Assembly (NCBI GenBank): GCA_964571795.1
Contig: CAZNDK010000004.1
Location: forward strand, 64,203 to 128,202
Reading direction: 5' to 3'
DNA: 64,000 bases
Source: an uncultured Gemmatimonadaceae bacterium
GTDB taxonomy: Bacteria; Gemmatimonadota; Gemmatimonadetes; Gemmatimonadales; GWC2-71-9
The translations under genes and the position numbers were made by a program. Shown piece by piece: positions 11,448 through 62,856 of the stretch. How positions within the stretch are numbered: position 1 is the first letter of the stretch; every line of letters starts with the position of its first letter. Under the pieces are notes generated by a model. The model was not told the origin of the DNA and searched no databases. It worked only from the letters and a program-made list of their open reading frames with translations.

Positions 11448-14400
11448 CTAGAACTCCTGCTCCCAGAGGACGTCGAGGCCGGCCTGGTACCGGTCATTGG
11501 TCGTGATCGGCGCGGTCTGCTGGTCCGCGGTGCAGGATGCGGAGGGCTCGAAGCTCGCGAGGAAGCGGAAGCCCCGCGCAAATCGGTATTCGAAGCTGGC
11601 CCCGATGTTCTTGTAGCTCGTGGCGCCGCCGGTGGTGCAGATGCCGGCGCTGAAGGTGAGGAAGGTCTTTCGGCCGATCTGCCACCCGGCGGCCAGCTGG
11701 GTCGCGGTGGAGGAGCCGTACGCGCCGCCCGCCGTGCCGGGGCGCAGCTCAATGTAGTCCACCGGGACGCGCAGGTCGGTGATCAGCGTGCGTTGCAGTT
11801 CGCTGGTCACCGCGCTGGAGAGGTACGCCAGGCCGAGATTCAGCGCCTGCTGCTGGTCGCCCGTGGCGCCGCTGGTCGTCTGCAGGGTCGAGGCGGGCCG
11901 GCGGAACATCAGGTAGGAGACGAGGTTGGTCTCCGAGATCGGCGGCAGGATGGTGGACGTCAGCTCCAGCTTCGGCTCGAGCAGCGTGCCGGTGATCTTC
12001 GCGATGACTGGCACGTCCTGGCTGCCGTCGAGCGGCCGCACGACATGTTCCGCCTCGATGTCGAGGTCGGCGTTGAGGTCGGGGGTGCCGAGGAACCGCA
12101 CCTGGCCCTTCTGCACCTTGAAGTCGCGGCGCACAGGTCCGATGGCGAGGGTGTAGCTGCCGCGCAGCGCGTCGAGCCGGCCGTCCACACGGTAATCGCG
12201 GCGCTGCTTGTCCACCCGCACCTCGCCGCCCAACTGGATGTTGGCCTCGTTGGACCGGAGCCAAAAGGCCTCCCCCACCCGCACCCGGAGGTTCTCCACG
12301 CGCAGGGAGTCGACGAACCGGTTCCGCGTCGAATACCCGCGCTGGAGCATGCGCTGAAAGCGCTGGTCCAAGAGGTCGCGGAATTCCGGGTCGTCGAGGT
12401 CCACGACGTCCTTCGTCACGAGGTCCGCGAAGTAGAGCGCCCCGCGGTTCGCCGTCACGCTTCCCGTCAGCGTGGGGGCGCGGAGCGGACCGGCCAGCCG
12501 CATCCGCCCGCTCCCCTCCAGCGTCAGGAACCCCCGAATGTCGGTGGCCCGGAAGTCGGTGGCCACGATGCCCATGTTGACGGTGGGATTCGTGAGCGTG
12601 TTGAAGCGGACGCTGCCCGAGGCGCGGAGCGATCCGACCCCCGGCGAGGTCTGCAGCAGGAGCGAATCGAGGATCAGCGAGTCGCCCATGAACCCCGCAT
12701 GCCCGGTGATGGTCGAGTACCGCACGCCGAGGCCGGGGACGGAGCCCTGTCCGTTCCGCACGTCGATGAACCCGGCGAGTCGGGGCGCCTGCCAGGTGCC
12801 CTCGACGCGCGCGTCGACGCTGAGGACCCCCGACACCCGGCGGACGCTCGTCGTGAAGGCTTCGAAGGTCCCGAGGTCGAGGCTGTCGGCGTGGGCCCGG
12901 ATCCGCAGCGGACCCTCGATCTGGCGACGCGGGACCGTGGCGAACGCCAGATCGAGGGGCAGCGCGAGGTCCACGACGAGAATCCGCTGGCCGGTCTTCC
13001 AGATGGACAGGTTGCCCTGCAGCAGCCGGGTGTCGTAGTGCAGGATCCCCTGGATGAAGGGAGACCGGAAGTCGCCGAAGACCGCGTCCCCCAGGGAAGC
13101 CGTGCCGTCGATGACCGGAGAGAGCCGGGTCCCTGCGATCTGAAGATCGGCACCGATCGATCCGGACACGCCGGTCGTGTCGCCGCGCAGCAGGCCGGCC
13201 ACGTCCCGGAGGTCGAGCCCGTACACGTGCATCTGGAGCGAGCCGGGCCGGTCTCCCGGCACGCTGCCGGAGATGTCGATGGCGCCCGAGCCGTCCACCG
13301 ACTCGAGGCGGAGCGGAGTGAGCACCATACCGGAATCGGTGCTCGTGGCGGCCGCGGGCGCCTGCAGCCGCCACACATGTCCGGTGAGCGCCATGGCGAG
13401 GGAATCGAACGCGATCCGGCGCGCGCCCTCCGACTCCGAGTATCGGCCGCTGGCGCCGAGGGCCGCCGCGTCTCCGCTCTCGAAGGAGGTGGACCACTCG
13501 AGCGCGTCCCTCGGGCCGAGCGCGCCCGCCCGGACGTTGGTGGCCACCATGCGGCCGGCGGCGACGGTGTCGGCCAGCAGTTCGAGGCTCACTTCGGGGC
13601 GGCTGCCGCCCAGCCACCCGACGGTGGCCGAGACTGAGTTGATCCGTCCGCCGCGGAAACGCACCTGGCTCGCGTCCGCGAAGCCCGAGGCGACGAGCGA
13701 GTCGAGCGAACCCGACAGCGACAGCTCGACCTGCCCCCGCCCCTGCAGCGCCGCCTCGGCGGAGTCCGGCCCGAGCCCGAGGGCGTCGACCAGGAGCGAA
13801 TCGAAGGCGCGCAGGCTGTCGAACCGCGCGCGCAACTGGAGTTGCCCCTCGTGCGGCTGGACCCACCCGATGCTTCCCTGGGCGTCCATGGCGCCCCCGT
13901 GCCACTCCACCGCGAGCGTGTCGACCAGGAGGACACTGTCCCGCACCGCGAACCGGCCGGCCGCCGTGTCGAGCCGGAAGGCGGCGATCCGTCCGGGCCC
14001 CAGCGCGCCGGCGATCGAGCCCTCGGGCGCGCGAAGGGTGTCGATCGATCCATTGACCAGCACGCTGCCCGTGAGGTCCGAGGTCGGCCCGATCCCGCGC
14101 AAGGCGTGGAGGTTCAGGTGGCGGAAGTCGATCGCGAGCGAATCGCCGCCCCAATGGGGCGTCGCCGCGGTGGCGGTCCCCCGCATCCGGAGCGTCCCGA
14201 TCTCGCCCTGCACGTCGGCGTCGAGGTCCATGCGCTCCAGCGTGCCGAGCAGCCGCACCTGTCCCGTCAGGGAGCCAAGGCTCGGCAGAGTCGGATAGCC
14301 GGCGCGGATGCCCTCGAAGGAAAGCGAATCGAGGGTGAGGTCGCCGTCGAACGCCGTGACGAGCGTGCGGGTGTCGAGCCGCACCCATCCGGCGACGGCG

Positions 14401-15863
14401 CTCACCGGGCGCTCGCCGTCCTGGTGCCGCATGGTGCCGGTGAACAGCACGTTCTTCCAGGGGCCCTCGAGGCTTCCGGTGAGGTCTGCCCGTCCCTGCA
14501 GCGTGACCGAGGGCGTCAGCAGCTGCACCGTCCGCAGGTCCACGTCGGACGAGGCGAGGGCGAACCGGCTGAAGACGAGCCCCTCGGCGCCGCCCATCAG
14601 CAGGTGGCCCCGTCCCGCGAAGCGGCTCGTCGCGCCGCCCGGCACCCCGATGTCCGTCACCTGCACGTCGAACGAGAGGTCCATGTCCGACAGGAACCCG
14701 CTGCCGGCCACCCGCCCCGACAGGCTGCCGCGCAGGGGAAGCGTGTCGAGATAGGGCCGGGCCGCCTCGAGGTCGAGCCGCATGATCGTGAGGTCCATGT
14801 CGCGCACGCCCAGCCCCAGCCGCCGGTCGGTCAGCGCCACCAGTTGCCCGTCGATGCGGGTGGTGTCGTTCTCGAGATGCAGCTCCTGGAGCGCGTAGCT
14901 GACCCGGTCGGCGTCGGCCGACTTCGCCACCACCACCGCCCTGCCGTGCAGCGCCGGGAAGTCCGGTGAGACCCAGCGAAGGTCGACGAGGTCGAGTTCG
15001 CTGAAGCGCATCGCGAAATCGAAGAGCAGCGGGCCGTCGGGCCAGGTGACGGCGCCGCCGCCCTGGAACCGGGATGCCGGGAGGGCGCCGCGCGTGATCT
15101 CGAAGACCAGGCTGTCGCCGTGAATGCGCGCCCGGCCCCGCGCCTGCTGCAGCCGGACGCCGGGATCGCTCACCCGGACGCCGAGCGTGTCGATGAGCAT
15201 CGACAGGGGATCGCGGTTCGGCGTGCTGATCGTGAGCCGTTCGAGGCCGAGCGCGAGGCTGTCGAACCGCCGGACCAGCTCCAACCCCTCCGCACCGGGG
15301 ACGATCACCCGCCCCGGGAGGGCCCGTTCGGCCGCCAGCGCGGAATCGCGCTGGCGCGGGCTGGCGCCCTTCGGCGGATCCCAAGGGAGGCGGAGGGTGA
15401 GCGTCCCCCCCACCAGTTCGAGATCGTGGATCTCGATGAGTGGCGGGCGCCCGCCCCCGGTGCCTTCGCCGAGGTGCAGGACTTCTTCGTAGTTCATCCG
15501 GCCGTTGCGGCGCCGGACGAGGTCGATCACCGGCGACTCGGCGCGGAGGCTCACGAAGTCGAAGCGCCGGGCGAGCAGGTTCGCCAGGTGGTAGCGGACG
15601 TCGAGCAGGGGGAACTCCGCCACCGTGGCGCCGCCGCTGTCGGTCAGCACCACGCCGGTGAGCTCGAGGTGGTTGATGAAGTTGCCCGACACCGCCCCGA
15701 TGGTCAGGTGACCGCGGAAGATGCGGTCGGACAACTCGGTCACGGTGCGCGCAAGCAGCCGCCGGCCCGACGGGGCCACGGTCAGGGCCCCGAGCAGGCC
15801 AAGCACGAGCCCCAGGGCGCCGAAGCCCGTCACGAACACGATGTGCGCCACACGCCGGCGCAT
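11448..15863 (-). CDS. tamB: Translocation and assembly module TamB (AsmA-like)
   Basis: ~1470 aa, N-terminal TM anchor, repetitive beta-strand pattern, C-terminal TamB-like region (G.V.F.G.PDLNA.LDIEA, ITGTLLEPKLEL); adjacent to Omp85 gene. Confidence 0.85.
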   Translation of the reverse strand: MRRRVAHIVFVTGFGALGLVLGLLGALTVAPSGRRLLARTVTELSDRIFRGHLTIGAVSGNFINHLELTGVVLTDSGGATVAEFPLLDVRYHLANLLARRFDFVSLRAESPVIDLVRRRNGRMNYEEVLHLGEGTGGGRPPLIEIHDLELVGGTLTLRLPWDPPKGASPRQRDSALAAERALPGRVIVPGAEGLELVRRFDSLALGLERLTISTPNRDPLSMLIDTLGVRVSDPGVRLQQARGRARIHGDSLVFEITRGALPASRFQGGGAVTWPDGPLLFDFAMRFSELDLVDLRWVSPDFPALHGRAVVVAKSADADRVSYALQELHLENDTTRIDGQLVALTDRRLGLGVRDMDLTIMRLDLEAARPYLDTLPLRGSLSGRVAGSGFLSDMDLSFDVQVTDIGVPGGATSRFAGRGHLLMGGAEGLVFSRFALASSDVDLRTVQLLTPSVTLQGRADLTGSLEGPWKNVLFTGTMRHQDGERPVSAVAGWVRLDTRTLVTAFDGDLTLDSLSFEGIRAGYPTLPSLGSLTGQVRLLGTLERMDLDADVQGEIGTLRMRGTATAATPHWGGDSLAIDFRHLNLHALRGIGPTSDLTGSVLVNGSIDTLRAPEGSIAGALGPGRIAAFRLDTAAGRFAVRDSVLLVDTLAVEWHGGAMDAQGSIGWVQPHEGQLQLRARFDSLRAFDSLLVDALGLGPDSAEAALQGRGQVELSLSGSLDSLVASGFADASQVRFRGGRINSVSATVGWLGGSRPEVSLELLADTVAAGRMVATNVRAGALGPRDALEWSTSFESGDAAALGASGRYSESEGARRIAFDSLAMALTGHVWRLQAPAAATSTDSGMVLTPLRLESVDGSGAIDISGSVPGDRPGSLQMHVYGLDLRDVAGLLRGDTTGVSGSIGADLQIAGTRLSPVIDGTASLGDAVFGDFRSPFIQGILHYDTRLLQGNLSIWKTGQRILVVDLALPLDLAFATVPRRQIEGPLRIRAHADSLDLGTFEAFTTSVRRVSGVLSVDARVEGTWQAPRLAGFIDVRNGQGSVPGLGVRYSTITGHAGFMGDSLILDSLLLQTSPGVGSLRASGSVRFNTLTNPTVNMGIVATDFRATDIRGFLTLEGSGRMRLAGPLRAPTLTGSVTANRGALYFADLVTKDVVDLDDPEFRDLLDQRFQRMLQRGYSTRNRFVDSLRVENLRVRVGEAFWLRSNEANIQLGGEVRVDKQRRDYRVDGRLDALRGSYTLAIGPVRRDFKVQKGQVRFLGTPDLNADLDIEAEHVVRPLDGSQDVPVIAKITGTLLEPKLELTSTILPPISETNLVSYLMFRRPASTLQTTSGATGDQQQALNLGLAYLSSAVTSELQRTLITDLRVPVDYIELRPGTAGGAYGSSTATQLAAGWQIGRKTFLTFSAGICTTGGATSYKNIGASFEYRFARGFRFLASFEPSASCTADQQTAPITTNDRYQAGLDVLWEQEF

Positions 15864-17971
15864 CAGAACGCCTGTCCCACGGCGAAATGGACCACGAAGC
15901 GGTCCGGATTGCCGCTCGGGGTGTAGACCTCGCGGATGCGGTACACCGCGTCGTTCTGGCTCTGATAGAGCGCGCCGCTCTGCCGCCCGTAGCCGTTGTA
16001 CCCGACGTCGAGCCGCACCGGTCCGAGCGGCGTGACCAGCCGGATTCCTGCACCGGGCGTTACCCGCACGATGGGGTCGGTCTGGTACCGGTCCCACAGG
16101 ACGCCCGCATCAACGAAGACCACCCACCGGAAGATTCGCCCCCAGATCGGGGAGGGCAGCCGGAGTTCGACATTCCCGACCCCGAGCATGTTTCCGCCGA
16201 TCGGCGAGTACATGATGGCGCCCGGAGGCACCGGCCCCGTGCCCGTGGTATCCACGGGAAAGGTGTCGTTGTCCACCAGGTAGTTGATCGGACCGAGCCC
16301 GTTCAGCTGGTACCCGCGCACGTCGTTGGGCCCGCCGGCATAGAAGCGGTTGGCGGGCGGGATGTAATTCGTCGCCTCGTTGCTGCCGAAGGAGGTGAGC
16401 GGCGCCCAGATCACGCCGCCCCGCAGCCGGTAGCTGAGGACGGTCTGCCGAGACAGGGTGCGATACCAGGAGCGCTCCGCCACCAGCTGGATGAACTGCT
16501 GGGTCGAGGCCGATCCGAGGAGTTGTGCGCTGATCGTCGTCTGCAGGGTCGTGCGCGTGCCGCGTGTAGGGTCCAGCGGATTGTTCACCGTGGGGAAGGA
16601 CGCGGACGCGTTCAGCGTGCCGAGCCCGAGGTCCGCGCTCAGCCGCGCGATGTCCTCCGAACTGCACACCAGCAGGGACACGCAGAAGCTGGCGGGGCTC
16701 GCCTGCGTGTGCCCGTAGGTGTAGGCGTAGGTCAGGGCCAGCCGGGCCAGCTTGGCCGTCTCACGGCTGATGCTGAACCCGGTGCCGATTTCCTGGCGGA
16801 GATACACCAGGTAGTCGGAGCGCCGGTCGGCGAAGACCGTCGTGGTGAGCGTGTTGTGCGGCGAGAGGAAGGCCGGCCGGCGCAGCGACACCGCCAGGCT
16901 GTAGTTGACCTCCCCGGACCCGAGGGTATCGGGCTTCAGCTGCGAGCACATCGTCCCGTTTTCGAGGCCCCAGGCCGTCGGCTCGCCGACGCCGATCTTG
17001 GAGAGTCGTCCGCTGATGTCCAGGACGCGTCCACCGCCGGCGAAGTCCCGGAACGTGATGCCCGCGCCGAGCCGGATGCAGTCTTCCGTCGCGTAGCCGA
17101 CGCTCCCCCGCGCCCGTCTCGGCTTGCTCTCGATGACCCGGACCTGGAGCGGCACCGAATCGGAGGCGGGGTCATACGTGGCGCTGTCGATGGTGACAGC
17201 CGCGAAGCTGAACAGCTCCGACCGGTAGAGGTTGCGCTGGCTCCGGTACAGGTCCTCCTGCGAGAATTGCTGCCCCGGTCGCGTCGCCAGCAGGGAGCGC
17301 ACCACGTCGGGCGACACCCGCTTGGTTCCCGAGATGCCGATGCCGCTCACGTCGGACAGTGGGCCGGGCTGGACGTCGATGGCCGCCGTGGCCTTGAGGG
17401 AGGTCCGCTCGCGCTCGAAGCTCTGGAAGGCGACCGCGTCGGGGTACCCGAGGTTGCGCAGTCGCCGCACGAGGGTGTCAGAGGTGGCGTCGAGCTGGAT
17501 CCGGCTGAAGGGATCGCCGGGCTGGAGTGGGAGGTCGCGCTCCACGGCGGCTCGCTTGGCCACCGAGTCGAGCCCCAGGACCTGCAGCGAGTCGAGCCGG
17601 ACCGGCGGACCCTCGGTGATCAGGAAGGTGATGTAGATGCTGTTCGCGTTCCGGCGCACGAGCGTATCCACCTCGGCGCTCATGTACCCGCTCTTCTTGT
17701 AGAGCAGCGTCAACCGGAGCACGTCCCGCTGGAATTCCACCGGATCGAAGTCCCGCTTTTCGCCGAGACCGATCCACTTGACCGTTCCCGTACGCGCGAA
17801 CCACGAGGAATTCGTGGTGGCGATCGCCGCCGAGAGCTGGGTCGCGTCGAGGGCGTGATTGCCCTTGAACTTCAGGCCGCGCACGATGAGCGGTTCGTCC
17901 TGCGCCTGAAGCGGCAAGACGGCCAGGAGCACGGCCAGCACGACGAAGAGCGCGCAACGGGGCACGCTCAC
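15863..17971 (-). CDS. tamA: Omp85-family outer membrane protein (TamA-like; POTRA + beta-barrel)
   Basis: Signal peptide ending LQA-Q, POTRA-like repeats, FYAGG..DVRGY, TPLGPVRLD, C-terminal GQAF; GTG start approximate. Confidence 0.85.
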   Translation of the reverse strand: MSVPRCALFVVLAVLLAVLPLQAQDEPLIVRGLKFKGNHALDATQLSAAIATTNSSWFARTGTVKWIGLGEKRDFDPVEFQRDVLRLTLLYKKSGYMSAEVDTLVRRNANSIYITFLITEGPPVRLDSLQVLGLDSVAKRAAVERDLPLQPGDPFSRIQLDATSDTLVRRLRNLGYPDAVAFQSFERERTSLKATAAIDVQPGPLSDVSGIGISGTKRVSPDVVRSLLATRPGQQFSQEDLYRSQRNLYRSELFSFAAVTIDSATYDPASDSVPLQVRVIESKPRRARGSVGYATEDCIRLGAGITFRDFAGGGRVLDISGRLSKIGVGEPTAWGLENGTMCSQLKPDTLGSGEVNYSLAVSLRRPAFLSPHNTLTTTVFADRRSDYLVYLRQEIGTGFSISRETAKLARLALTYAYTYGHTQASPASFCVSLLVCSSEDIARLSADLGLGTLNASASFPTVNNPLDPTRGTRTTLQTTISAQLLGSASTQQFIQLVAERSWYRTLSRQTVLSYRLRGGVIWAPLTSFGSNEATNYIPPANRFYAGGPNDVRGYQLNGLGPINYLVDNDTFPVDTTGTGPVPPGAIMYSPIGGNMLGVGNVELRLPSPIWGRIFRWVVFVDAGVLWDRYQTDPIVRVTPGAGIRLVTPLGPVRLDVGYNGYGRQSGALYQSQNDAVYRIREVYTPSGNPDRFVVHFAVGQAF

Positions 17972-18126: not shown

Positions 18127-19659
18127 ATGACGCGCTTCCTCCTCGCCGCGATGCTGGTCCTGACCGCCTGCGGCGGCGAAGGGGGACCCCGCACCATCAC
18201 GTACTATTTCACCGCCGACCCGCGCTCCCTCGACCCCGCCTTCTCCACCGACGTGCCGAGCGGCGAGATGATCGCCATGCTGTTCGACAACGTGACGCAG
18301 TTCGACGTGGCGGGACGCCTGGTGCCTGGCATCGCCACCCGCTGGGAAGCCGATTCCACGGGGTCGGTGTACACATTCCACCTTCGGCCCGACGCCCGGT
18401 TCCACGACGGCCGCCCCATCACTGCGCGGACGGTGCGGGCCTCGTTCCGGCGGGTGCTCTCGCTCGCCTCGAAGGGGTCACGGACCTGGACGCTCACCCC
18501 CATCCTGGGCGCGACAGCCTTCGCCTCGGGCGACGCCTCCGACGTGGAGGGCCTCGCCACCCCAAACGATTCGACGCTGGTGGTCACCCTCGCGGAACCG
18601 CTCAACGTCTTTCCCAAGCTGCTTGCCATGCCCGCCTCGGCCATCGTGCCCGAATCGCTGGGGCCCGACTTCGGCGAGCGCCCGGTAGGCAGCGGGCCCT
18701 GGAAGTTCGTGAGCTGGTCGCACGACGATGCGCTCCTGGTGGCCGCGAACGAGGACTACTGGGGCGGCCGGCCGCTCTCCGACTCGCTCCGCGTGCGAAT
18801 CATTCCCGAGCCCCTCACGCAGGCCGCCGAGTACGAGTTCGGCCAGTTGGCGATCGTGGAAGTGCCGTTCAGCGAAACGGTCCGCTGGGAGCGGGAGCAT
18901 GGCCCGGAACTCCAGCGGCGTCCGGCGCTCCGCGCGCTCTACGTGGCGATCAACACCCAGCGCGGCGCGCTCAAGGACGTGCGCGTGCGCCGGGCGCTCA
19001 ACCTGGCCGTGGACGCGGGCACGATGATGCGCACCATCATGGCCGGGCGCGGCGTGCGCTCGGCGGGCGCCATCCCGCCGGGCATCGAGGGGTACGACAG
19101 CGCCCGCGCGCCGTACCCCCACGACACCGCCGCGGCGCGGGCGTTGCTGGTCGAGGCCGGGTACGCCGGCGGGCTGACCCTCAAGCTCTGGCGGACGCAG
19201 CGCTCGGAGCTGGCGCGCATCGCGCAGTCCATCCAGCAGAGCCTGGGGCAGGTCGGCGTGACGGTCGAGATCATCGAACGCGACGCCTCGAGCGCCCGCG
19301 CCGCGTCGTCCAAGGGCGAGGCGGACCTCTTCCTGACCGACTGGTACGCCGACTACCCCGACCCCGAGAGCTTCAATTATCCCACCTTCTACTCGAAAAA
19401 CGCCGGCGGCGGCGGCAACCGGGCGTTCTATGCCGACCCGGTCACCGACCGGATGATCATGCGCGCCCGGGGCACTCCTGATGCGGCGCTGAAGGACAGC
19501 CTCAGCCGCGCCATCGACCAGCGGATCTTCGAGGCGGCGCCCTGGATCTTCCTCTGGTTTCCGGTGGACCTGTGGGCCGAGCGGCCGAACGTCACGGGAT
19601 GGGAAGTGCCGGCCATCTTCAACGGGCAGCGCTGGCGGACCGTCGAGAGGCTCCCGTGA
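18127..19659 (+). CDS. Peptide/nickel ABC transporter substrate-binding lipoprotein (SBP family 5)
   Basis: LTAC lipobox; YTFHLR..ARFHDG, PVGSGPW, VRRALNLAVD. Confidence 0.93.
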   Translation: MTRFLLAAMLVLTACGGEGGPRTITYYFTADPRSLDPAFSTDVPSGEMIAMLFDNVTQFDVAGRLVPGIATRWEADSTGSVYTFHLRPDARFHDGRPITARTVRASFRRVLSLASKGSRTWTLTPILGATAFASGDASDVEGLATPNDSTLVVTLAEPLNVFPKLLAMPASAIVPESLGPDFGERPVGSGPWKFVSWSHDDALLVAANEDYWGGRPLSDSLRVRIIPEPLTQAAEYEFGQLAIVEVPFSETVRWEREHGPELQRRPALRALYVAINTQRGALKDVRVRRALNLAVDAGTMMRTIMAGRGVRSAGAIPPGIEGYDSARAPYPHDTAAARALLVEAGYAGGLTLKLWRTQRSELARIAQSIQQSLGQVGVTVEIIERDASSARAASSKGEADLFLTDWYADYPDPESFNYPTFYSKNAGGGGNRAFYADPVTDRMIMRARGTPDAALKDSLSRAIDQRIFEAAPWIFLWFPVDLWAERPNVTGWEVPAIFNGQRWRTVERLP

Positions 19660-20576
19660 CCCGCTTCCTGGCCTGGCGGCTCCTGCTGGTGCTCCCGACG
19701 CTCTTCGGCGTGCTGGTGGTGGCGTTCCTGCTCCTGCACGTGGCCCCGGGCGACCCGGTCCAGGCGATGGTCGGCGAGCGCGCGGACTCGGCCACGCTCG
19801 TGCGGCTCCGCGCCGAGCTGCATCTCGACGAGCCGCTCCCCAAGCGCTTCGTCCTCTACACCGCCGGCATCCTCCGGGGAGACCTGGGCAACAGCTACAT
19901 CACCGGCCGGTCGATCCTCGGCGAATTGCTGCATCGGTTCCCCTACACCCTCCGCCTGGCGCTCGCCGCGATGCTCTTCGCGGTGACCCTCGGGCTCCTG
20001 GTGGGGATCTTCGGGGCGTGGCGCCCGGGCAGCTGGTTCGACCGCGCCATGACGCTGGGGGCCTACCTCGGCGTGTCGTTCCCGGTATACTGGGTCGGGC
20101 TGCTGCTGATCCTGATCTTCGCGGTCCAGCTGCACTGGTTGCCGCCGAGCGGATCGGGGGGGCTCGCGTTCCTGGTGCTCCCGGCGCTGACGCTGGGCAT
20201 GCGCTCCGTCGCGGTGATCGCGCGGATGACGCGGGCCGCGATGCAGGAGGTCCTGCAGGCCGACTACATCCGCTCCGCCCGCGTCATCGGGCTCGGCGAG
20301 GGGCGCGTGGTGTTGCGCCACGGCCTGCGGAACGCCCTGCTCCCGGTCATCACGGTCGTGGGCCTCGACTTCGGCAGCTACTTGACGGGCTCCATCCTGA
20401 CGGAGACCATCTTCTCGTGGCCCGGAGTGGGGCGGTATGTGCTCACCGCCATCAGCAAGCGCGACCTTCCTGCCGTCCAGGGAAGCATCCTCTTCCTCAG
20501 CGTGGTCTTCGTGCTGGTCAACCTCCTCACCGACATCCTCTATGCCAAAGCCGACCCCAGGGTCTCGTATGACTGA
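19656..20576 (+). CDS. Peptide ABC transporter permease (DppB-like)
   Basis: PGDP, GDLGNS, EAA-loop region (DYIRSAR..GL), ETIFSWPGVG, DPRV; GTG start. Confidence 0.93.
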   Translation: MTRFLAWRLLLVLPTLFGVLVVAFLLLHVAPGDPVQAMVGERADSATLVRLRAELHLDEPLPKRFVLYTAGILRGDLGNSYITGRSILGELLHRFPYTLRLALAAMLFAVTLGLLVGIFGAWRPGSWFDRAMTLGAYLGVSFPVYWVGLLLILIFAVQLHWLPPSGSGGLAFLVLPALTLGMRSVAVIARMTRAAMQEVLQADYIRSARVIGLGEGRVVLRHGLRNALLPVITVVGLDFGSYLTGSILTETIFSWPGVGRYVLTAISKRDLPAVQGSILFLSVVFVLVNLLTDILYAKADPRVSYD

Positions 20577-22056
20577 CGCCGCCCGGCGCGCCGCCGTCGT
20601 CCTCGCGCTGGCCCTGCTCCTCGGGGCGGCCCCGGCCGGCGCCCAGGCCCTCCAGAAGCGGATCGACACCCGGCTCGGCGCGCCGCCGCTCAATCGCAAC
20701 CTCTGGGGCGTCGTCCTCCTCGGGCCGGACGGCAAGCAGCTCTACGGCCGGAACGCGGACCGGATGTTCATCCCGGCCAGCAACACGAAGCTGGTGGTGG
20801 CGGCGGTGGCCGCCGCCCTGTTCCCGCCGGACTGGACCGTGAACACCAGCGTGTACGCCGACGGCCCCCTCGTGGGCGGCATCGTCGACGGGGACCTCGT
20901 CCTCTACGGGCGCGGCGACCCGACCATGGGCGCGCGGTGCTACGCGGTGGACACCACCGCGCCCGGCGCTTGCGACACCGATGCCTCCCAGCGGCTCCGC
21001 GTGCTGGCGGGGGCGCTCCGTGCCCGTGGCGTCACCACGGTCACCGGCGACCTGGTGGGCGACGGCAGCTGGTTCCAGGGCGACCTCGTCAACGGCGATT
21101 GGGAAGCTTACGACCTCAACTGGTGGTACGCCGCGCCCGTGTCCGGCCTCGGCTTCAACGACAACAGCATCGACTTCACCTACGCACCCGGCGCCGCCGT
21201 CGGGGCACCGGCCGCCATCAGCTTCACCCCGGACTTCGGGATGGTCGCCTTCGAGAACCGGACGCGCACCGTGCCGGCAGGCCAGCCGACGACCATCGAC
21301 TTCTACCGGGAACCCGGGACGCTTCGCGTCTGGGCCGAGGGCGACGTGGCGCTCGACTCCCGCGGCGGGAAGGAGTACTTCGCGCTTCCCGACCCCGACC
21401 TCTTCGCCGCCTGGGCGCTGCGGGCGGCGCTGGCCGACAGCGGCATCGCCGTGCTCGGGGCCACGCGCTCGACCACCGATTCCACGCAGTACCGCGCCGC
21501 CCGCGAGCGGGGTGCGCTCGCGGAGGTGGCATCGCGACCGCTGAAGGATTGGATCTTCCCGGTGCTCAACACCAGCCAGAACTGGTACGCCGAGATGCTG
21601 CTCAAGCAGCTCGGCCGCCAGTTCGGCGACGGCGGCTCGTGGCGGGGCGGACTCGCGGTGGAGCGCCGCTTCCTGATCGATTCGATGCGGGTGGATTCGC
21701 TGCAGTTCGCGCTGCGGGATGGCTCCGGACTGTCGAGCAGCAACCTGGTGTCCCCACAGGCCTTCGCCACGCTCCTCGCGTGGATGCGGCGCCACCCGCA
21801 CTTCGAGGCCTTCGCGGCCGGGCTGCCGCAATCCGGCCAGCGAGGGTCGCTCAAGTCGCGATTTGTTGGCACCCCGCTGGAGGGGAAGGTGCGCGCCAAG
21901 ACCGGAAGCATCAGCCGCGTCAACACCCTTTCAGGCTACATCGAGCTGCCCGGCCGCACGCTCGTCTTCTCGGTCGAGGCCAACAACCACACGCTCGGCG
22001 GCCGGGTGATGATCCCGCAGATCGACAGCCTGGTGGTCCAGATGGGGAAGAAGTAG
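20569..22056 (+). CDS. dacB: D-Ala-D-Ala carboxypeptidase/endopeptidase (PBP4, peptidase S13)
   Basis: PASNTK (SxxK), SQN (SxN), KTG motifs, DGSGLS; signal peptide. Confidence 0.93.
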   Translation: MTDAARRAAVVLALALLLGAAPAGAQALQKRIDTRLGAPPLNRNLWGVVLLGPDGKQLYGRNADRMFIPASNTKLVVAAVAAALFPPDWTVNTSVYADGPLVGGIVDGDLVLYGRGDPTMGARCYAVDTTAPGACDTDASQRLRVLAGALRARGVTTVTGDLVGDGSWFQGDLVNGDWEAYDLNWWYAAPVSGLGFNDNSIDFTYAPGAAVGAPAAISFTPDFGMVAFENRTRTVPAGQPTTIDFYREPGTLRVWAEGDVALDSRGGKEYFALPDPDLFAAWALRAALADSGIAVLGATRSTTDSTQYRAARERGALAEVASRPLKDWIFPVLNTSQNWYAEMLLKQLGRQFGDGGSWRGGLAVERRFLIDSMRVDSLQFALRDGSGLSSSNLVSPQAFATLLAWMRRHPHFEAFAAGLPQSGQRGSLKSRFVGTPLEGKVRAKTGSISRVNTLSGYIELPGRTLVFSVEANNHTLGGRVMIPQIDSLVVQMGKK

Positions 22057-25082: not shown

Positions 25083-25124
25083 ATCCACAGTCATCCACAT
25101 TCATCATTTTTCGTGTTGATCGGC

Positions 25125-25147
25125 AAGTTATTGCAATGCAATAGCTT
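25125..25147. promoter_or_regulatory. Imperfect AT-rich palindrome upstream of the sigma factor gene
   Basis: AAGTTATTGCA-A-TGCAATAGCTT (10/11 arm match). Confidence 0.5.
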
Positions 25148-25253
25148 ACTGATATTTATCAACCTGACGGAGCTCGGGCGCCGGAGGCTCGAGTGGAGGA
25201 AATCCGCAACTCATTTCAATGGTTGTTTTTGTGATGTGGAAAGAATTTTTCGC

Positions 25254-32919: not shown

Positions 32920-33108
32920 TTACATCGTCTTGGCGGTATCCCGGGCCATGGTGGAATCGGCGGCCGGCGCCATGCTGTCCGTCTTGGCGGTGGTGTCGGA
33001 GACCGGAGCCGCGACGACGCTGTCGGCGGCCGGGGTGGCGGGAGCCGGCTTCTCGCCGGCACAGGCCGCGAGGGTCACCAGGGCGGCCACGGCGAAGAAC
33101 TTCTTCAT
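32920..33108 (-). CDS. Small (62 aa) low-complexity lipoprotein
   Basis: MKKFFAVAALVTLAAC lipobox; Ala/Pro/Asp/Ser/Thr-rich tail; own promoter and terminator. Confidence 0.85.
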   Translation of the reverse strand: MKKFFAVAALVTLAACAGEKPAPATPAADSVVAAPVSDTTAKTDSMAPAADSTMARDTAKTM

Positions 33109-49907: not shown

Positions 49908-50119
49908 CCTGCCCTCCCTGCGCCTGATTGAGTGCTTTCCAGTGGCGGCAGGATAAGCTGTTACCCCAAGAGATACAAGGACTTGCAAGCCGGGTCCGGG
50001 GACCGGATTCGCCCCGAACGACCCCCGAGCTGTAGAAGCCCCGCCGCGACAGCCGTTGCACATCGCCGCAATTTATTGACATAGCAATTTGCAGAGCATT
50101 GGAATTAAAGGAGTTATGG

Positions 50120-50136
50120 CTGGCCTAAGTGTTGCT
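50120..50136 (+). promoter_or_regulatory. Sigma54 (-24/-12) promoter
   Basis: CTGGCCTAAGTGTTGCT: GG-N10-GC with TTGC, ~58 nt upstream of ATG 50194, in an AT-rich region. Confidence 0.65.
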
Positions 50137-50193
50137 TGTATTGACGGTTGGGCAAAAAGGTGATGGCGCCCGCTGGTTCACCTTGGGGGCAGC

Positions 50194-52005
50194 ATGTACC
50201 GCATCCGACTCGCATCCGGACAGGAGCAGGTCTACCGCTCGATCCAGGAACTCACCGCCGGTGTCCAGCGCGGCGAGGTCACGGCCGAGTCGGAGATCTA
50301 TCACCAGCGCACGGAGCGCTGGCTTTCCATCGAGAGCCATCCGCACTACCGGATGGCGGTCGAGGGCGGTACCGCCACGCGCCAGTCGCGCCTCAAGTTC
50401 ACCCGTCCCTCCAGCCCCATCACGAACTCCGGAGTGCGGCCGACGCCGCCCGCCGCTGAGCGCCCCGACCAGGGCGACCTCGAGGAGCTCAACCGGCTCC
50501 TCGTCCTGCTCGATCCGCTCCCGACGCCGGCGCAGCGCGCCGAGCCGCCGGCGCCGCCCGTGCAGTCCCCGCCCGACCTCGCGCTTGTACGCCCGGAGCC
50601 GATCCCGCCGTCGATGTCGTCCGACGACCCGCAGCCTTCGTTCGGCACGATGCTTCGGCTGGAGGATCTCGAGCTGGCGCCGAAGGCCGTTCCGCCTGCC
50701 CCGATCGCTCCGCCCGTCGTGGAGATCATTCGCGACGAACGGCCGATCCAAGAGGAACTTGAGGCCTCGGCAGCGGAACCGCCCGCGGTCGAGCCCTTGG
50801 CCGCCCTTTCGGACGTGGCGCCGAGCGACCTTGGCCTCCCCGTCGAGATCCATCTCGACGAGATCCCCGTGCCCGTCGAACTGGAGCCGCTCGCGATCGA
50901 GGAGTCGTTCCCAGCCCCGGAAGCCGCCCCGAAGGCGGAGCCGGCCCCGGTCCCGTTCGCCCAGGTCTCGTTCGCCCCGGTCGTCGCCGAGGCCGCGCCG
51001 GTGGCGTTCGTGTCCGCGCCAACGCACACGGTCGCCGAGGACAGCCAGCCGGCGGCGCGATCCCCGCGTCCCCGTCGACCGATGCTCTTCGTGGCGGTCG
51101 CCGCCATCCTCGCGCTCGCGGTCTTCGCCTTCACCGGCGGCAGCAACGATCCCGAACAGAGCATCGTGACCCTCGCCTCGGCCACCGCGCCGAACGGCGT
51201 GGCGGCGCCCACAACGGCGGACTCCGCGCCCGCCAGCTCGGGCCCGGGCGTCGGCTTCCCGCTCCCCGCGCCAGGTTCGGCGAACAAGGGGACCACGACG
51301 GATCCTCGGACCGCGGCGGTCAAGGACAGCCTTCCGCCCGCGGCCGTCCTCCCCAGCGCGCCGACCATCGACCTCCGGTCCTCGGGCACGGAGATGGTGG
51401 ATGCCGGGGCCGCTGCTCCACGTGCCGATGCAGGCAGCGGTGCCGCCCTCGCGCGCGGCTACGCGCGGTCGTACGCCGCACTCGAGTCGGATTTCACCGC
51501 CCAGATGGACCGGACCGGACTGGTCCGGCTCTTCAGCCAGACCCAGCTCACCACTGCCGACGGCCTCTCGGGCGCCCGCCGGGCGCTGGACGCTGCGGCC
51601 GCGGCGGTCCGCCAGTACCACGCGAAGGAAACGACCATCGAACGCGCCTACCAGGACTCCGCCCGGGCGCTCGAGCGCAATGGCGCCTCCGCCGCGGACC
51701 TGCGGGACTGGATGACGCATGCGTCGCTGAAGGAATCGCAGGAGGCGGCCGGCGAGAGCGCGCGCCTCATCGGCCAGATTGACGCCGTCTTCGCCCTGCT
51801 GCAGTCGCAGTCCGGCCGCTACCGCGTCGAAGGCTCCACCATCAAGTTCGACGATTCGAACGCGGCCGCCCGCTACGCCGACCTGCAGAGCTGGATTACC
51901 CGGCGGCTCGAGCACTGGGCGGGCCAGCCCACCTCCGCCGTGCCCAACACCGTGGAACCGCTCCTCGAGGGAATCGGGCTCACCCGACTTCCCACTTCCC
52001 GCTGA
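50194..52005 (+). CDS. Single-pass membrane hypothetical protein (small N-terminal GYF-like domain, Pro/Glu-rich linker, TM, periplasmic helical domain)
   Basis: ELTAGVQRGEVTAESEIY..RW pattern; TM MLFVAVAAILALAVFAF. Confidence 0.8.
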   Translation: MYRIRLASGQEQVYRSIQELTAGVQRGEVTAESEIYHQRTERWLSIESHPHYRMAVEGGTATRQSRLKFTRPSSPITNSGVRPTPPAAERPDQGDLEELNRLLVLLDPLPTPAQRAEPPAPPVQSPPDLALVRPEPIPPSMSSDDPQPSFGTMLRLEDLELAPKAVPPAPIAPPVVEIIRDERPIQEELEASAAEPPAVEPLAALSDVAPSDLGLPVEIHLDEIPVPVELEPLAIEESFPAPEAAPKAEPAPVPFAQVSFAPVVAEAAPVAFVSAPTHTVAEDSQPAARSPRPRRPMLFVAVAAILALAVFAFTGGSNDPEQSIVTLASATAPNGVAAPTTADSAPASSGPGVGFPLPAPGSANKGTTTDPRTAAVKDSLPPAAVLPSAPTIDLRSSGTEMVDAGAAAPRADAGSGAALARGYARSYAALESDFTAQMDRTGLVRLFSQTQLTTADGLSGARRALDAAAAAVRQYHAKETTIERAYQDSARALERNGASAADLRDWMTHASLKESQEAAGESARLIGQIDAVFALLQSQSGRYRVEGSTIKFDDSNAAARYADLQSWITRRLEHWAGQPTSAVPNTVEPLLEGIGLTRLPTSR

Positions 52006-52119: not shown

Positions 52120-53043
52120 ATGCGCATCACCTTCCGCCCCCGCGTGGTGGGATTCCTGGCCCTGGCGACCCTGGCGCTCGGTGCCTGCATGTCACCCGCT
52201 GAAAAGCAGAAGCAGCAAGAGGCACTCCAGGCCCAATTGGATCAGGTCACGGCGCTTTCGGCCGAGAAGGACACGCTGCTGCAGGCGGTCGCGGAGAACG
52301 CGCGCCTCATGAACGAAATCAACACCGAGATGGCCAAGGTGAAGGACCTCAAGGCCGGCGTCGCCCCGGTGGTCGGGGCCGAGGGTGGCCAGCAGCCGGT
52401 CGCGGACCAGCGCGCCATCATCCTGGCCCGGGTCAAGGAAATGACCGAGCGCCTGAACGACGCCGAAAAGCGGCTCGGCGCCAGCCAGGCGCGGATCCGC
52501 CGCCTCAGCAAGCAGTCGGACAGCCTGAAGGCCGACCTCGGCTCGCTCGAAACGACCGTCGCCGAGTACCAGCAGATGATCGCGACCCAGCGGGTCGAGA
52601 TCGCCACCATGAGCGAGCAGCTTGCCACCACGCAGGCGGAAGTGGCCACGCTCTCGGTGGAGAAGGCGGCGCTGATCGACACCGTCACCGCCATCACCGA
52701 CCGCAGCAACATGGTCTACTACGTGATCGGGACGAAGGACTCGCTGAAGGCCAAGGGGATCATCGTCGAGGAGGGCGGATCCAAGGTGCTGTTCTTCGGC
52801 AGCCACGCCCTGCAGCCGGCGCGGGTGCTGAACGAGGCCGACTTCACCGCCGTCGACCGGCGCGTGGTGATGGAAATCCCGTCGCCGATGACGACGCAGC
52901 GCTACAAGATCGTGTCGCGCCAGAACACCGACTACGCCGAGAACAAGCCCGACTCCAAGGGGCGCGTGACAGGCGGGGTCAAGATCGCCTCTCCCGAGGG
53001 GTTCTGGGCGCCGTCGAAGTTCCTGATCCTCGTCGTCGACTGA
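52120..53043 (+). CDS. Coiled-coil lipoprotein (resembles Bacteroidota Cbp1-like family)
   Basis: LGAC lipobox; long heptad region; C-terminal YYVIGTKDSLKAKGII..GG and PEGFW..SKFLI. Confidence 0.8.
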   Translation: MRITFRPRVVGFLALATLALGACMSPAEKQKQQEALQAQLDQVTALSAEKDTLLQAVAENARLMNEINTEMAKVKDLKAGVAPVVGAEGGQQPVADQRAIILARVKEMTERLNDAEKRLGASQARIRRLSKQSDSLKADLGSLETTVAEYQQMIATQRVEIATMSEQLATTQAEVATLSVEKAALIDTVTAITDRSNMVYYVIGTKDSLKAKGIIVEEGGSKVLFFGSHALQPARVLNEADFTAVDRRVVMEIPSPMTTQRYKIVSRQNTDYAENKPDSKGRVTGGVKIASPEGFWAPSKFLILVVD

Positions 53044-58209: not shown

Positions 58210-61200
58210 TTACTGCGACCCTGCCGGCTTTTCTCCTGCCAGCGCCGCCATCCGCGCGCGCGCTTCCTTGACCTGGGGCTGCAGCACCGGGTCGGCGTCC
58301 CGCCACAACTCGGTGAACTCCCCGTAATACTCGAGGGCCTTGGCGCGGTTGCCCTTCGCCTCGTACATCTCGCCGAGGCGGCGGTAGGTGGGGCCCAGCG
58401 TCCAGTTCTCGTCGCCGGTGTTCGTTCGCGCGTCCGGTTGCGTGACCGACCGCTCGTACCGCACCAACGCGGAATCGGCCTCGCCGGCGCGGTCCCAGGC
58501 CCTCGCGGCGTCGGTCAGCGTGCAGGGCGGGCACTTCATCCGGGTGCGGTAGTCGTCGTAGGCCATGGCGGCCTCCCTCCACCGGCCTTCGGCCTGGGCG
58601 GTGAGCGCTGCCCAATACACCGAATCGGCCGCCGACCGCTCCTCCTGCGGGCGCACCCGGGTCCATTCGGCCTGGAGTTGCCGGACCTTGTCCACCCGAC
58701 CAGCGATGGCGTAGGCGTAGCCGAGCCCCTGGTACGGCCGTTCGTCGGCGGGCAGGCTGTCGAGTACCGCCTTCGGAAAGAGCGAATCGGCGGCCCGCGC
58801 CATCGCCTGTCCATCTCCGAGGAAGTAGGCCCGCGCCTGCGCAGGGTAGCCCTGCAGGTACAGGGCGGTCCCCCGCGCGCCCACGGCGGCCATTGCCGGG
58901 GCGAGCTGGGCCGCGAGCCGTTCCGATTCCGCCACGCGGCCCAGGGCCACTGCCACCCCGATCCGCTCGAACTGGACGGCGAATTGCTGGGCCTGGGCGG
59001 TCGGCACTCGTAGGGCCGGATCCTTGAGGATCGAGTCCACGGCGTGGTAGTCGCGCTGCATGTAGTACTCGACGCGGACCATGTCATCGGGGCGGGTGGA
59101 CTCCGGCCAGCGCCGCCGGAACTCGGCCAGCACCGAGTCGGCCGCGGCCCACTTGCCCTGGGCCATGAGCGCCACCGACAGATTCAGGTACCCACCCTGC
59201 AGCGTGGCCGTCTCCACGAGATGCCGGAGCATCGGCTCGGCCTCCGCCGCACGGCCCTGGTCGTTCAGGATCAGCCCGAGGTTGTTGAGCGCGGTCACCT
59301 CGTCGGGGTCCGCGGCCAGCACGGCACGATACGCGGCCTCTTCCTTGTCGACGTCCCCCGTGACGACGTTGTGATAGTAGGCCTCGGTGAGTCCCCGCTC
59401 GACGGGGGGAAGCCGGTCACGGAACTGGTAGGCGCGCATGGCTGCGGCCTTCGCCTCCGTCCCGCCGCCGATGACCGCCTGGGGCAGCACCACGGCCAGC
59501 TTGCGCCAGGCCATGGCGAAGGTGCTGTCCACCGCCACCGCCTGGCGAAGGAGCTTCACGGCTTCCTCGGAGCGACCAGCAGCATGCTCGCGAACCGCCT
59601 CGCTATAGAGCCGGAGCGCCTCGAGGGAGGAGGTGGTGACCTGCTCGAGCCGGTCGCCGCCGCGAATGCGGCCGAGGGACTCGCCGACCTTTTCGCGCAA
59701 TTCCTTGGAGAGCCGGTCCACCGCGGCGATGAGCTGCGAGGCGTCCGCCGCCGTCGCCCGGATCGGGACCAGCGTTTCCCCGGTGGAGGCGTTGATGACG
59801 CGCGCCGCCAGCGAGTAGCCCGAGCCGAGCGAGGTGATTTCGCCGGTGATGATGGCCTTGATCCCCTCACGCCGCGCCACGTCGCTCGCGAGCGCCACGT
59901 CGAGCGTGGCGTCGGCCGGGCGGCCCATTCGCTGCAGCGCCGCCTGGAGGTCGCCCGCCTCCATCAGCCGCATGACGTTCGATTGCCCGAGGTCGATGCG
60001 CAGCGCCTCGGTGACCGATGCGCCGAGGGTCGAGTCGCTCGTGCGGTTTTCGAACTCGACCAGGATGATGCGGTCCTGTGCCGCGAGCACCCCGGCGCTC
60101 ATCAAGGTGCTGCCCGGCCCGATGCCGAGCTTCCGTGACACCAGGAATCCGCCGGCCAGCAGGGCGACCAGCCCGATCGCCATCCAGCCGCCCAGGATGG
60201 TGCGGCGCCAGGTGAACCAGCCGTGGTGGGCGGGCTCCGGCTCGAAGCGGAGCGTCCCCATGGTCATCGCCACCGCCCGCTTCCGCTCGACTCGGCCGGT
60301 ATAGACGATGATCGGAAGCCCAAGTGCCATCGCGAGCGCCGCGCCTTCCCAGATCCAGTCCGGCAGCTCGAAGACGCGGGTGAGCCCGAACGCCACGCCG
60401 ACCACCACCAGCGAGGCGAGGGCGAAGAGCCCGTATACCCGCGCGGGTGACGAGCGGCGCACCGCCGCCTCGGCGTCCAGGCGGACGCTGGAGACCGGCG
60501 TGGTGGAAATCGGGGTGGTGCCGCCGGTGGGCGTGGTCATTGTCGCCAGGCGCGCCGCGATTTCATCGGCGTTCTGGATTCGGTCGGCCGGGTTCTTTTC
60601 CAGGCACCGCAGCACGAGGTCGTTCATCGCCGGCGGGATCGTGTTCCGGTAGCGGACCGGCGGTTCGGGCCGCTCGGCGATGTGCGCCGCCAGCATGCCC
60701 TGCGGAGTCGGCGCCACGAACGGGGTGCGGCCGCAGAGCATCTCGTAGGCCATGGCGCCCACGGCGTAGATGTCGGCGCGCTGGTCCACCCGTGGGTCGG
60801 CCGCGGCCTGCTCCGGCGACATGTAGGCCGGCGTGCCAAGCGCGATCCCGAGCGAAGTCAGGCTGGTGTGCCCGTCGCCGCTCGAGGCGCTCACCGCCTT
60901 GGCCACGCCGAAGTCCGTCACCAGCGCATGCTTGCCGGAGAGCATCACGTTGTCGGGCTTGATGTCGCGGTGGACGACGCCGTGGTGATGCGAGTAGGCC
61001 AGCGCGTCCACCACGTCGTGCAGGATGCGGAGGACCTCGCTCATCGGGAGCGCGCCCTCCCGGGCCAGCCGCGCGCGCAGGGACTCGCCCTCGATGAACG
61101 GCATGACGTAGTAGGCGAGGTCGGCGTTCGCGCCCGCCGTGAGGAGCTGGACGATGTGGGGATGCTGGAGCGAGGCGGCGAGCTGGATTTCCCGCTCGAA

Positions 61201-61377
61201 CCGCTCGGCGTTGACGCCTGCGGCCATGTCGGGCGGGAGCACCTTGATGACGACGCGCCGGCCGAGCCGCGACTCTTCCGCAAGGAAGACGCGGCTCATG
61301 CCGCCGCCCCCGAGCTCGCGGAGGATGCGGTAGTTGTCGCCGAGGGCCGCGTGCAGGCGGTCCGACAGTTCGGCCAT
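58210..61377 (-). CDS. Hanks-type Ser/Thr kinase with 3 TM, TolB-N-like domain and TPR array
   Basis: LGGGGMS, VIK, HRDIKPDN, DFG, GTPAYMSPE; three hydrophobic segments; TPR-like repeats (ALNNLG). Confidence 0.93.
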   Translation of the reverse strand: MAELSDRLHAALGDNYRILRELGGGGMSRVFLAEESRLGRRVVIKVLPPDMAAGVNAERFEREIQLAASLQHPHIVQLLTAGANADLAYYVMPFIEGESLRARLAREGALPMSEVLRILHDVVDALAYSHHHGVVHRDIKPDNVMLSGKHALVTDFGVAKAVSASSGDGHTSLTSLGIALGTPAYMSPEQAAADPRVDQRADIYAVGAMAYEMLCGRTPFVAPTPQGMLAAHIAERPEPPVRYRNTIPPAMNDLVLRCLEKNPADRIQNADEIAARLATMTTPTGGTTPISTTPVSSVRLDAEAAVRRSSPARVYGLFALASLVVVGVAFGLTRVFELPDWIWEGAALAMALGLPIIVYTGRVERKRAVAMTMGTLRFEPEPAHHGWFTWRRTILGGWMAIGLVALLAGGFLVSRKLGIGPGSTLMSAGVLAAQDRIILVEFENRTSDSTLGASVTEALRIDLGQSNVMRLMEAGDLQAALQRMGRPADATLDVALASDVARREGIKAIITGEITSLGSGYSLAARVINASTGETLVPIRATAADASQLIAAVDRLSKELREKVGESLGRIRGGDRLEQVTTSSLEALRLYSEAVREHAAGRSEEAVKLLRQAVAVDSTFAMAWRKLAVVLPQAVIGGGTEAKAAAMRAYQFRDRLPPVERGLTEAYYHNVVTGDVDKEEAAYRAVLAADPDEVTALNNLGLILNDQGRAAEAEPMLRHLVETATLQGGYLNLSVALMAQGKWAAADSVLAEFRRRWPESTRPDDMVRVEYYMQRDYHAVDSILKDPALRVPTAQAQQFAVQFERIGVAVALGRVAESERLAAQLAPAMAAVGARGTALYLQGYPAQARAYFLGDGQAMARAADSLFPKAVLDSLPADERPYQGLGYAYAIAGRVDKVRQLQAEWTRVRPQEERSAADSVYWAALTAQAEGRWREAAMAYDDYRTRMKCPPCTLTDAARAWDRAGEADSALVRYERSVTQPDARTNTGDENWTLGPTYRRLGEMYEAKGNRAKALEYYGEFTELWRDADPVLQPQVKEARARMAALAGEKPAGSQ

Positions 61378-62415: not shown

Positions 62416-62856
62416 ATGCGTCCCCGATGGCTGCTTGCGCTCCCCGCCCTGCTCCTGTCCGTCCCCGTGGCCGCCCAGGTGGCCGCCCCCGCGCCCCCGG
62501 CGGCCCGGCTCGATTCGGCCGCCACCATCGCCACCGGTCGCAAGTACACCGAGTGGTTCTACTCCGACATGGGCGACAGCCTCATCGCGCACAGTTCGCC
62601 GCAGGTCAAGGAGAAGGTCACCGCGGCGCAGCTCTCGGAAATCCAGGGACAGCTCACCGCGCAGGTCGGCCCCGAGGCCGAGGTGATCTCGGAGCAGGTG
62701 GTGGCCAAGGACACGCTCTCGGGGTACCTGCGCGAGGTCCGGTTCGAGATGATGCAGGAGCCGCTCGTCCTGGCCTTCACCCTCGGCAAGTCAGGGCTGA
62801 TCTACGGGTTCTTCATTCGGCCGAAGAGCGAGGTGAAGGCGGACGCACCCAACTAG
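62416..62856 (+). CDS. Exported hypothetical protein (DUF3887-like)
   Basis: Signal peptide ending VAA-Q; QLTAQVG, RFE, G.IYGFFIRP C-terminus. Confidence 0.75.
   Translation: MRPRWLLALPALLLSVPVAAQVAAPAPPAARLDSAATIATGRKYTEWFYSDMGDSLIAHSSPQVKEKVTAAQLSEIQGQLTAQVGPEAEVISEQVVAKDTLSGYLREVRFEMMQEPLVLAFTLGKSGLIYGFFIRPKSEVKADAPN

Follow-up and report, generated by a model that had tools for sequence, protein, structure and literature searches.

The 64,000-nucleotide stretch of DNA analysed here (the window) comes from an uncultured Gemmatimonadaceae bacterium, and its exported proteins are rich in D-(S/T)-(A/I/L/V/M/T), the sequon of the general O-glycosylation system of Bacteroidota. The feature is real, and a known kind of system would thereby be extended to a second, distant phylum. 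It is very likely explained by a periplasm-facing O-glycosylation as in Bacteroidota, carried out by an enzyme of the GT-C fold, the transferase probably belonging to a clade of TMEM260-like proteins of the Fibrobacterota-Chlorobiota-Bacteroidota (FCB) group. A first-pass annotation of the window had proposed a proteome-wide system of the Bacteroidota type, and this proposal is supported by flat control motifs, by depletion of the motif in orthologues from outside the FCB group, and by glycans modelled in a Gemmatimonas structure.

Sequon enrichment in exported proteins

The genome containing the window (2.87 Mb, 69.9% GC, 95.7% complete) is of gemmatimonadotal origin, as had been supposed from the letters, close homologues of one window protein being labelled Gemmatimonadales or Gemmatimonadota. 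A self-trained gene caller gave 2668 genes, and 2572 proteins were sorted by home-made signal-peptide and transmembrane (TM) rules based on hydrophobicity rather than by SignalP. As certain proteins that are plainly exported fall into the cytoplasmic set under these rules, the contrast between the two sets is diluted. The expected number of sequons was derived from each protein's own composition.

The 486 exported proteins contain 1141 sequons against 515 expected (2.21-fold; 2.59-fold in lipoproteins), whereas the 1484 cytoplasmic proteins contain 1153 against 1058 (1.09-fold) and 118 polytopic proteins stand at 1.07-fold. The signal is widely spread, the median for 242 long exported proteins being 2.0 and 75% of exported proteins having at least one sequon. 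The D-S form is enriched 3.13-fold and the D-T form 1.41-fold. When all 20 residues were scanned at the +1 position after D-S, the high values were those of L (4.1), T (3.4), I (3.2), A (2.8), V (2.5) and M (2.3), the remaining 14 residues giving 0.5-1.2; in cytoplasmic proteins no residue exceeded 1.3. Both the +1 set and the Ser bias are the glycosite preference of Bacteroidota, as given in excerpts of a 2025 review (PMC12871550).

Control triplets and shuffles had been suggested in the first-pass annotation, and the enrichment persists when they are applied. In exported proteins E-S/T-x was at 0.82, showing that by statistics Asp at -1 is not interchangeable with Glu here, and N-S/T-x (0.90), S/T-D-x (0.89), the reversed triplet (1.00) and D-A/G-x (0.97) were likewise flat; D-S/T followed by any other +1 residue was at 0.73. 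Shuffling inside 20-residue blocks (200 runs) gave 537.5 ± 24 sequons with a maximum of 599, as compared with 1141 observed. Codon bias was rejected as a cause, codon use inside the sequons being ordinary.

The same contrast is seen within proteins. In 23 TM-linked Ser/Thr kinases taken together, 12 sequons precede the TM segment (17.2 expected) and 108 follow it (37.0 expected); in 68 single-pass proteins the corresponding figures are 24 (29.2 expected) and 97 (52.3 expected). At least 34 eukaryote-type Ser/Thr kinases were recognised by motif in the 2.9-Mb genome, 23 with a TM segment after the kinase domain and 11 without.

In the window, the 12 predicted exported proteins hold 60 sequons against 19.4 expected (37 against 12.9 without TamB) and the 28 cytoplasmic proteins 23 against 17.0. 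The exported proteins and ectodomains concerned are:

11448..15863, minus strand: TamB, 1471 aa, PF04357, a predicted substrate; 23 sequons, 6.5 expected
15863..17971, minus strand: TamA/Omp85, 702 aa; 8 sequons, 7 of them in the periplasmic POTRA part (1.5 expected) and 1 in the barrel (1.0 expected)
18127..19659, plus strand: ABC solute-binding lipoprotein (SBP_bac_5, Pfam); 6 sequons, 1.7 expected
20569..22056, plus strand: DacB (peptidase S13, Pfam); 5 sequons, 1.7 expected
32920..33108, minus strand: predicted lipoprotein, 62 aa, no Pfam family; 5 sequons in about 30 residues of an Ala/Pro-rich tail
35130..36590, minus strand: peptidase M48 lipoprotein (Pfam); 2 sequons, 1.1 expected
36590..38698, minus strand: peptidase S46 (Pfam); 4 sequons, 2.4 expected, not significant alone
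50194..52005, plus strand: single-pass membrane protein, 603 aa; 0 sequons before the TM segment and 3 after it
52120..53043, plus strand: coiled-coil predicted lipoprotein; 4 sequons, 0.9 expected
58210..61377, minus strand: Ser/Thr kinase with a TPR ectodomain; none of its 8 sequons lies in the kinase part, all being past the TM segments, at residue 448 or later
62416..62856, plus strand: exported protein, 146 aa; 3 sequons, 0.3 expected
62928..63914, minus strand: exported PDZ-domain protein; 2 sequons, 0.9 expected

Among the cytoplasmic proteins of the window, the histidine kinase (1087 aa) has 1 sequon, FNR 0, GlcD 0, the acyl-CoA ligase 2, and AroB and GlcF 3 each. The hand counts of the first-pass annotation were all exact on recount with the self-trained gene calls. 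Its claim that exported proteins are enriched and cytoplasmic ones carry far fewer sequons holds for the window and the genome alike, and the two proteins that it had used as internal controls, the Ser/Thr kinase and the protein at 50194, behave across their TM segments as described. The 62-aa lipoprotein was absent from its list. Pfam agrees with the family names it had given wherever a model exists, and returned no informative family for the proteins at 50194, 52120 and 62416.

The sequon in other genomes

For random sampling, a 16-mer probe from the window led to 119 named loci, 80 of them with flanks, and 20-kb regions from 27 genomes were added. Gene calls on the sampled loci agreed with the stops of the full model in 94 of 100 test calls; three loci of less than 5 kb were dropped from the counts and three unassigned genomes set apart. 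FCB coverage comprises Gemmatimonadota, Bacteroidota and Chlorobium, no Fibrobacterota, Latescibacterota or others being recognisable by name among the 119 loci. As related genomes are not independent, all cross-genome figures are descriptive only.

In the random samples, exported proteins contain 127 sequons against 72.1 expected in Gemmatimonadota of the same class and 85 against 44.7 in other classes of the phylum. In cultured Gemmatirosa kalamazoonensis, 150 kb of plasmid gave 50 against 25.1 for exported proteins and a ratio of 1.16 for cytoplasmic ones. The comparison with non-FCB bacteria proposed in the first-pass annotation revealed no such enrichment, the samples from 62 genomes giving 171 against 184.1 (0.93).

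Matched orthologues gave a sharper picture. For TamB, the C-terminal part was used (mostly 800-1000 aa; six duplicate loci excluded, one unassigned genome set apart), and 171 sequons against 61.6 expected were found in 18 Gemmatimonadota (2.78-fold) and 79 against 41.9 in 11 Bacteroidota (1.89-fold), as compared with 31 against 62.2 outside the FCB group (0.50-fold; 22 sequences from 18 genomes). Values of 3.4-4.5 were reached in seven Gemmatimonadales, with 1.9 in a truncated eighth and 1.0-3.3 elsewhere in the phylum; the window organism's family, with 3.4-4.5 in four genomes (f1), is among the strongest. In the N-terminal 434 aa of BamA, from which a Chlorobium piece with two stops in frame was left out, there were 16 sequons against 9.2 expected in Gemmatimonadota (8 genomes), 14 against 6.6 in Bacteroidota (5) and 5 against 7.1 in non-FCB bacteria (6). 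Among nine Gemmatimonadota TamBs, the sequon Asp is retained in 68% of pairwise comparisons, as against 36-41% for other Asp residues, the pairs not being independent. TamA, TamB and LptD are named, in the literature excerpts consulted, among the glycosylated or predicted-site-rich proteins of Porphyromonas gingivalis.

The system indicated here is thus like that of Bacteroidota in its sequon, in the residues favoured at +1 and the bias towards Ser, in being limited to extracytoplasmic segments, in its TamA/TamB-type targets, and in sharing the TMEM260-like clade and the YfhO-like gene. It is unlike it in belonging to another phylum, in a TamB enrichment as strong or stronger (2.78 versus 1.89), in that neither a metG-wzx (LFG-like) locus nor RmlC was found, and in being predicted here from sequence. 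According to excerpts of the 2025 review, the system is unique to Bacteroidota and its oligosaccharyltransferase (OTase) undiscovered, and homologues of eukaryotic O-mannosylation should be sought; enrichment, mapped on a genus tree of all bacteria, was 'mainly' in Bacteroidota, with Fibrobacterota similar (PMC12871550). Gemmatimonadota are unnamed in the excerpted text, although Fig. 2A of the review may show the phylum. A literature search that covered few subscription journals found no proposal of general O-glycosylation in Gemmatimonadota or of a PF11028 enzyme as OTase. Hence, the first-pass statement that the system is uncharacterised in this phylum stands insofar as no paper proposing it was found, and is weakened by the earlier mapping of the enrichment over all bacteria.

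Because the same sequon spans the distance between the two phyla, only genes common to both remain candidates for the enzyme, and this comparative filter leaves two GT-C families. If the explanation is true, some three quarters of the proteins exported by Gemmatimonadota, a phylum abundant in soil and sediment, would be glycoproteins, with a bearing on the proteomics, structures and heterologous expression of these proteins.

Modelled glycans and a candidate transferase

The methods of the Gemmatimonas phototrophica RC-dLH structure (PDB 7O0U) describe O-glycans modelled at two sites, with a core of Man bearing GlcA and Rha as in Pedobacter heparinase II (PMC8849296, in part). Counted on alignments to 7O0U, whose end positions agree, the sites are D107-T108-L109 and D330-S331-F332; Phe at +1 is a minor residue among the Bacteroidota sites reported in the review (PMC12871550). 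The main text of PMC8849296 contains neither 'Bacteroid' nor 'motif'. G. phototrophica belongs to the same order as the window organism and both of its modelled sites are preceded by Asp, but these are two sites in one complex, described, in the portions consulted, in the methods section only, and the window organism has a different family code and no full PufC match.

The photosynthesis genes of G. phototrophica are reported to have been acquired from proteobacteria. Its PufM has a terminal tail, past the end of the proteobacterial chains listed, in which there are three further strict sequons, and PufM of another phototrophic member of the phylum (L385:2-979, plus strand) carries four D-S-T sequons in tandem in a terminal stretch rich in Met, Ala and Pro. 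A family sister to that of the window organism has thus gained sequons on PufC and PufM, both obtained by horizontal transfer, and the position of the PufM tail sequons beyond the proteobacterial chain ends points to active selection rather than a relic.

For the initiating transferase, sequence comparison modestly favours a TMEM260-like protein as the candidate. Two intact PF11028 (DUF2723, TMEM260-like) genes lie outside the window on contig C3 (7320-9485 and 59055-61370), and their products match PF11028 above cut-off, with about 10-11 TM helices. PF11028 was found in 67 of 67 Gemmatimonadota genomes (31/31 and 36/36) and in 1 of 14 control genomes, that of Bacteroides thetaiotaomicron. A search of 50 of the genomes behind the 119 loci gave 21 matches, comprising all 11 Bacteroidota, Chlorobium and one Gemmatimonadales at E ≤1e-44, and 8 of the remaining 37 genomes with E no better than 8e-35. 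The densest protein of the whole genome, an Ig-like (Big_5) lipoprotein (L362:13610-14839, minus strand, contig C3) with 14 sequons against 1.6 expected, is encoded on the same strand as one TMEM260-like gene and lies five genes upstream of it.

The best sequence match in the PDB is human TMEM260 (9RQL, E 3.5e-18), a proven protein O-mannosyltransferase (PMC10214176, in part). Human D52, H67, R355 and D441, the last being the catalytic base, correspond to D36, H51, R361 and D452 of the bacterial protein; human R264 and Y267 fall outside the aligned stretches. As reported in excerpts of PMC10214176 and bioRxiv 10.64898/2026.03.17.711096, D52, H67 and D441 are essential in the human enzyme and R355 partly so. 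The predicted model (pLDDT 80) resembles the GT-C enzymes PglB, ArnT and STT3, and the fold-library search made with it did not return TMEM260 itself. The bacterial proteins thus share with human TMEM260 the predicted fold and the four residues, whereas the human enzyme is described in the same sources as reading a long IPT-domain signature rather than a tripeptide, and the bacterial clade has invariant residues of its own (R258, R359 and D454).

The FCB sequences form one clade with SH-like support of 99 (FastTree, 42 of 61 rows, with an untested root and long non-FCB branches), in which Bacteroidota and Chlorobium stand apart from Gemmatimonadota; the branching agrees with the family codes, and the gene is duplicated in the class of the window organism. 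Of 52 FCB rows, 51-52 have the motifs R359-x-R-D-Y and D452-N-D-T, as against 0 of 9 non-FCB homologues. Divergent TMEM260-like proteins occur outside the FCB group in Chloroflexota (L141, L142, L145, L152), Verrucomicrobia (L143) and Planctomycetales (L147), with up to six per Anaerolineales genome; they have no FCB motifs, and the small samples available showed no sequon enrichment.

In the mechanism proposed, proteins would cross the inner membrane, a periplasm-facing GT-C enzyme would recognise Asp-Ser/Thr-hydrophobic in extended or exposed segments and transfer a lipid-linked sugar to the Ser/Thr of the motif, and selection would add sites to periplasmic domains. As a speculation, the sequon Asp could be recognised by R359 or R258. 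Chances appear even that the donor is polyprenyl-phosphate-linked mannose, or a mannose-initiated core, made by a GT2 such as one beside yfhO on contig C39. By analogy with work on Bacteroidota, the modification may stabilise or hydrate periplasmic proteins. It is conceivable, at slightly below an even chance, that the system is an ancestral FCB trait, from Bacteroidota to all sampled Gemmatimonadota classes, with a vertically inherited TMEM260-like clade as the enzyme and an invariant Arg reading the sequon Asp. If so, this clade would correspond, in bacteria, to a human O-mannosyltransferase that is linked to disease.

Contrary evidence and alternative explanations

A number of observations weigh against glycosylation of the Bacteroidota type by a TMEM260-like enzyme. 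The intended positive control, 10 random 20-kb samples of Bacteroidota, was unenriched (68 against 83.3; 0.82), so that Bacteroidota are enriched on matched orthologues only. Putative causes, both likely to contribute, are surface proteins that avoid the motif, as is described for abundant surface-exposed proteins of P. gingivalis, and signal rules that miss Bacteroidota signals. In the genome of the window organism the figures bearing on surface avoidance were mixed, with 1 against 1.0 for the TamA barrel and 7 against 1.5 for its POTRA part, but 2.07 for a crude set of 19 barrel proteins in which TamB was wrongly included. One Pseudomonas sample had 14 sequons against 6.0. Chlorobium, which has the FCB-type enzyme, has 0 sequons in TamB against 2.3 expected and 3 against 2.6 in random samples, and some Gemmatimonadota lineages are weak (G080, 9 against 9.0 in random samples; TamB at 1.0-1.5 in G041, G046, G077 and G083). 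The D-S-F glycosite of G. phototrophica falls outside the strict six-residue +1 set, and the glycans were built into density from the Pedobacter model without coverage by mass spectrometry (PMC8849296, in part). For the window organism itself the evidence consists of sequence, from which glycosylation follows in all likelihood.

The complement of glycan genes is a further point. RmlC was not found in the 95.7%-complete genome, RmlD-like matches being moderate, and no wzx locus follows metG, whose flanking genes (C13) are not glycan genes. The glycan may therefore not be built on the core known from Bacteroidota; the LFG-like locus (metG, wzx and glycosyltransferases) is itself described as not conserved across Bacteroidota (PMC12871550, in part). 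The genome encodes two Wzy_C proteins, 11 GT2 matches and one clear Wzx (C23), and nothing in it matched PMT_2 above cut-off.

In Gemmatimonadota, YfhO-like genes have as wide a distribution as PF11028, and the best surviving alternative, unlikely though still to be reckoned with, is that the glycosylation system is the same but is initiated by the YfhO-like GT-C protein (C39 11762-14089), TMEM260-like proteins acting otherwise. YfhO is predicted as the Bacteroidota OTase in a 2026 preprint (10.64898/2026.07.27.740950), and yfhO here, with a weak Pfam score (E 1.8e-6), lies in a GT2-GT4-PF03706-yfhO-GT2 run; no other such cassette of glycan genes adjoins either candidate. Pfam detected YfhO-like genes in 58 of 61 Gemmatimonadota, and the three remaining were found using this genome's protein; hence, distribution within the phylum cannot separate the two enzymes, and these three genomes, considered as discriminators, were rejected as such. 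The family is present in 9 of 11 Bacteroidota and is common outside the FCB group too (10 of 37 non-FCB or unassigned genomes, as well as Bacillus and Lactococcus). P. gingivalis, with 257 reported glycosylation sites, is stated in the preprint to be without YfhO, a point that bears on YfhO alone. In the excerpted preprint no YfhO is cited as protein-modifying and the OTase role is a prediction only, as opposed to the proven activity of TMEM260. If the TMEM260-like protein is the initiator, YfhO might, speculatively, act at another step, for example in adding outer glycan. A few genes upstream of the yfhO run, on the same strand, C39 encodes LptC and, next to it, an exported protein of 441 aa that has 11 sequons (L361:10908-12775, minus strand).

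It is improbable that the motif is read in a different role, be it as a sorting or protease signal or as the site of some other modification, or is the relic of an inactive ancestral system. The missing RmlC and the uneven strength across the phylum would fit such a reading, but the window organism's family is among those with the strongest signals, both TMEM260-like genes are intact with their catalytic residues, and sequons were gained on the acquired PufC and PufM. Still less credit can be given to transfer by a PglL/WaaL-type O-OTase such as the Wzy_C protein of the window. PglL-type enzymes are known O-OTases, and two Wzy_C proteins are present, one in the window; however, 9 of the 14 control genomes also have Wzy_C, and the majority of those nine are without the motif. 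Moreover, bacterial O-glycosylation outside the Bacteroidota type is described as generally without a sequon (PMC12871550, in part). A structural preference (Asx turn, helix cap or strand entry), or an effect of composition or codons, without any modification, to which the three sequons each of AroB and GlcF, cytoplasmic ratios of 1.09-1.35 and the one high non-FCB sample might be ascribed, is extremely improbable and in its structural form largely refuted, given that the same folds (TamB, BamA) are depleted in non-FCB bacteria, that the control triplets (E-, N-, permuted and reversed) show no enrichment, local shuffles fall far below the count and sequon codons are ordinary, and that glycan density lies on such sites in G. 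phototrophica.

Three further features of the window were recorded. The Wzy_C (O-antigen ligase family) membrane protein (44622-46217, plus strand) is isolated from glycan genes. At 54708-56791 (plus strand), a nucleotidyltransferase followed by a galactokinase-like GHMP kinase resembles a sugar salvage pair and could supply a nucleotide sugar. AT-rich intergenic stretches, in a genome of 70% GC, lie at 25080-25270 and 50060-50190, 5' of a sigma-factor-like gene and of the gene for the 603-aa membrane protein, respectively.

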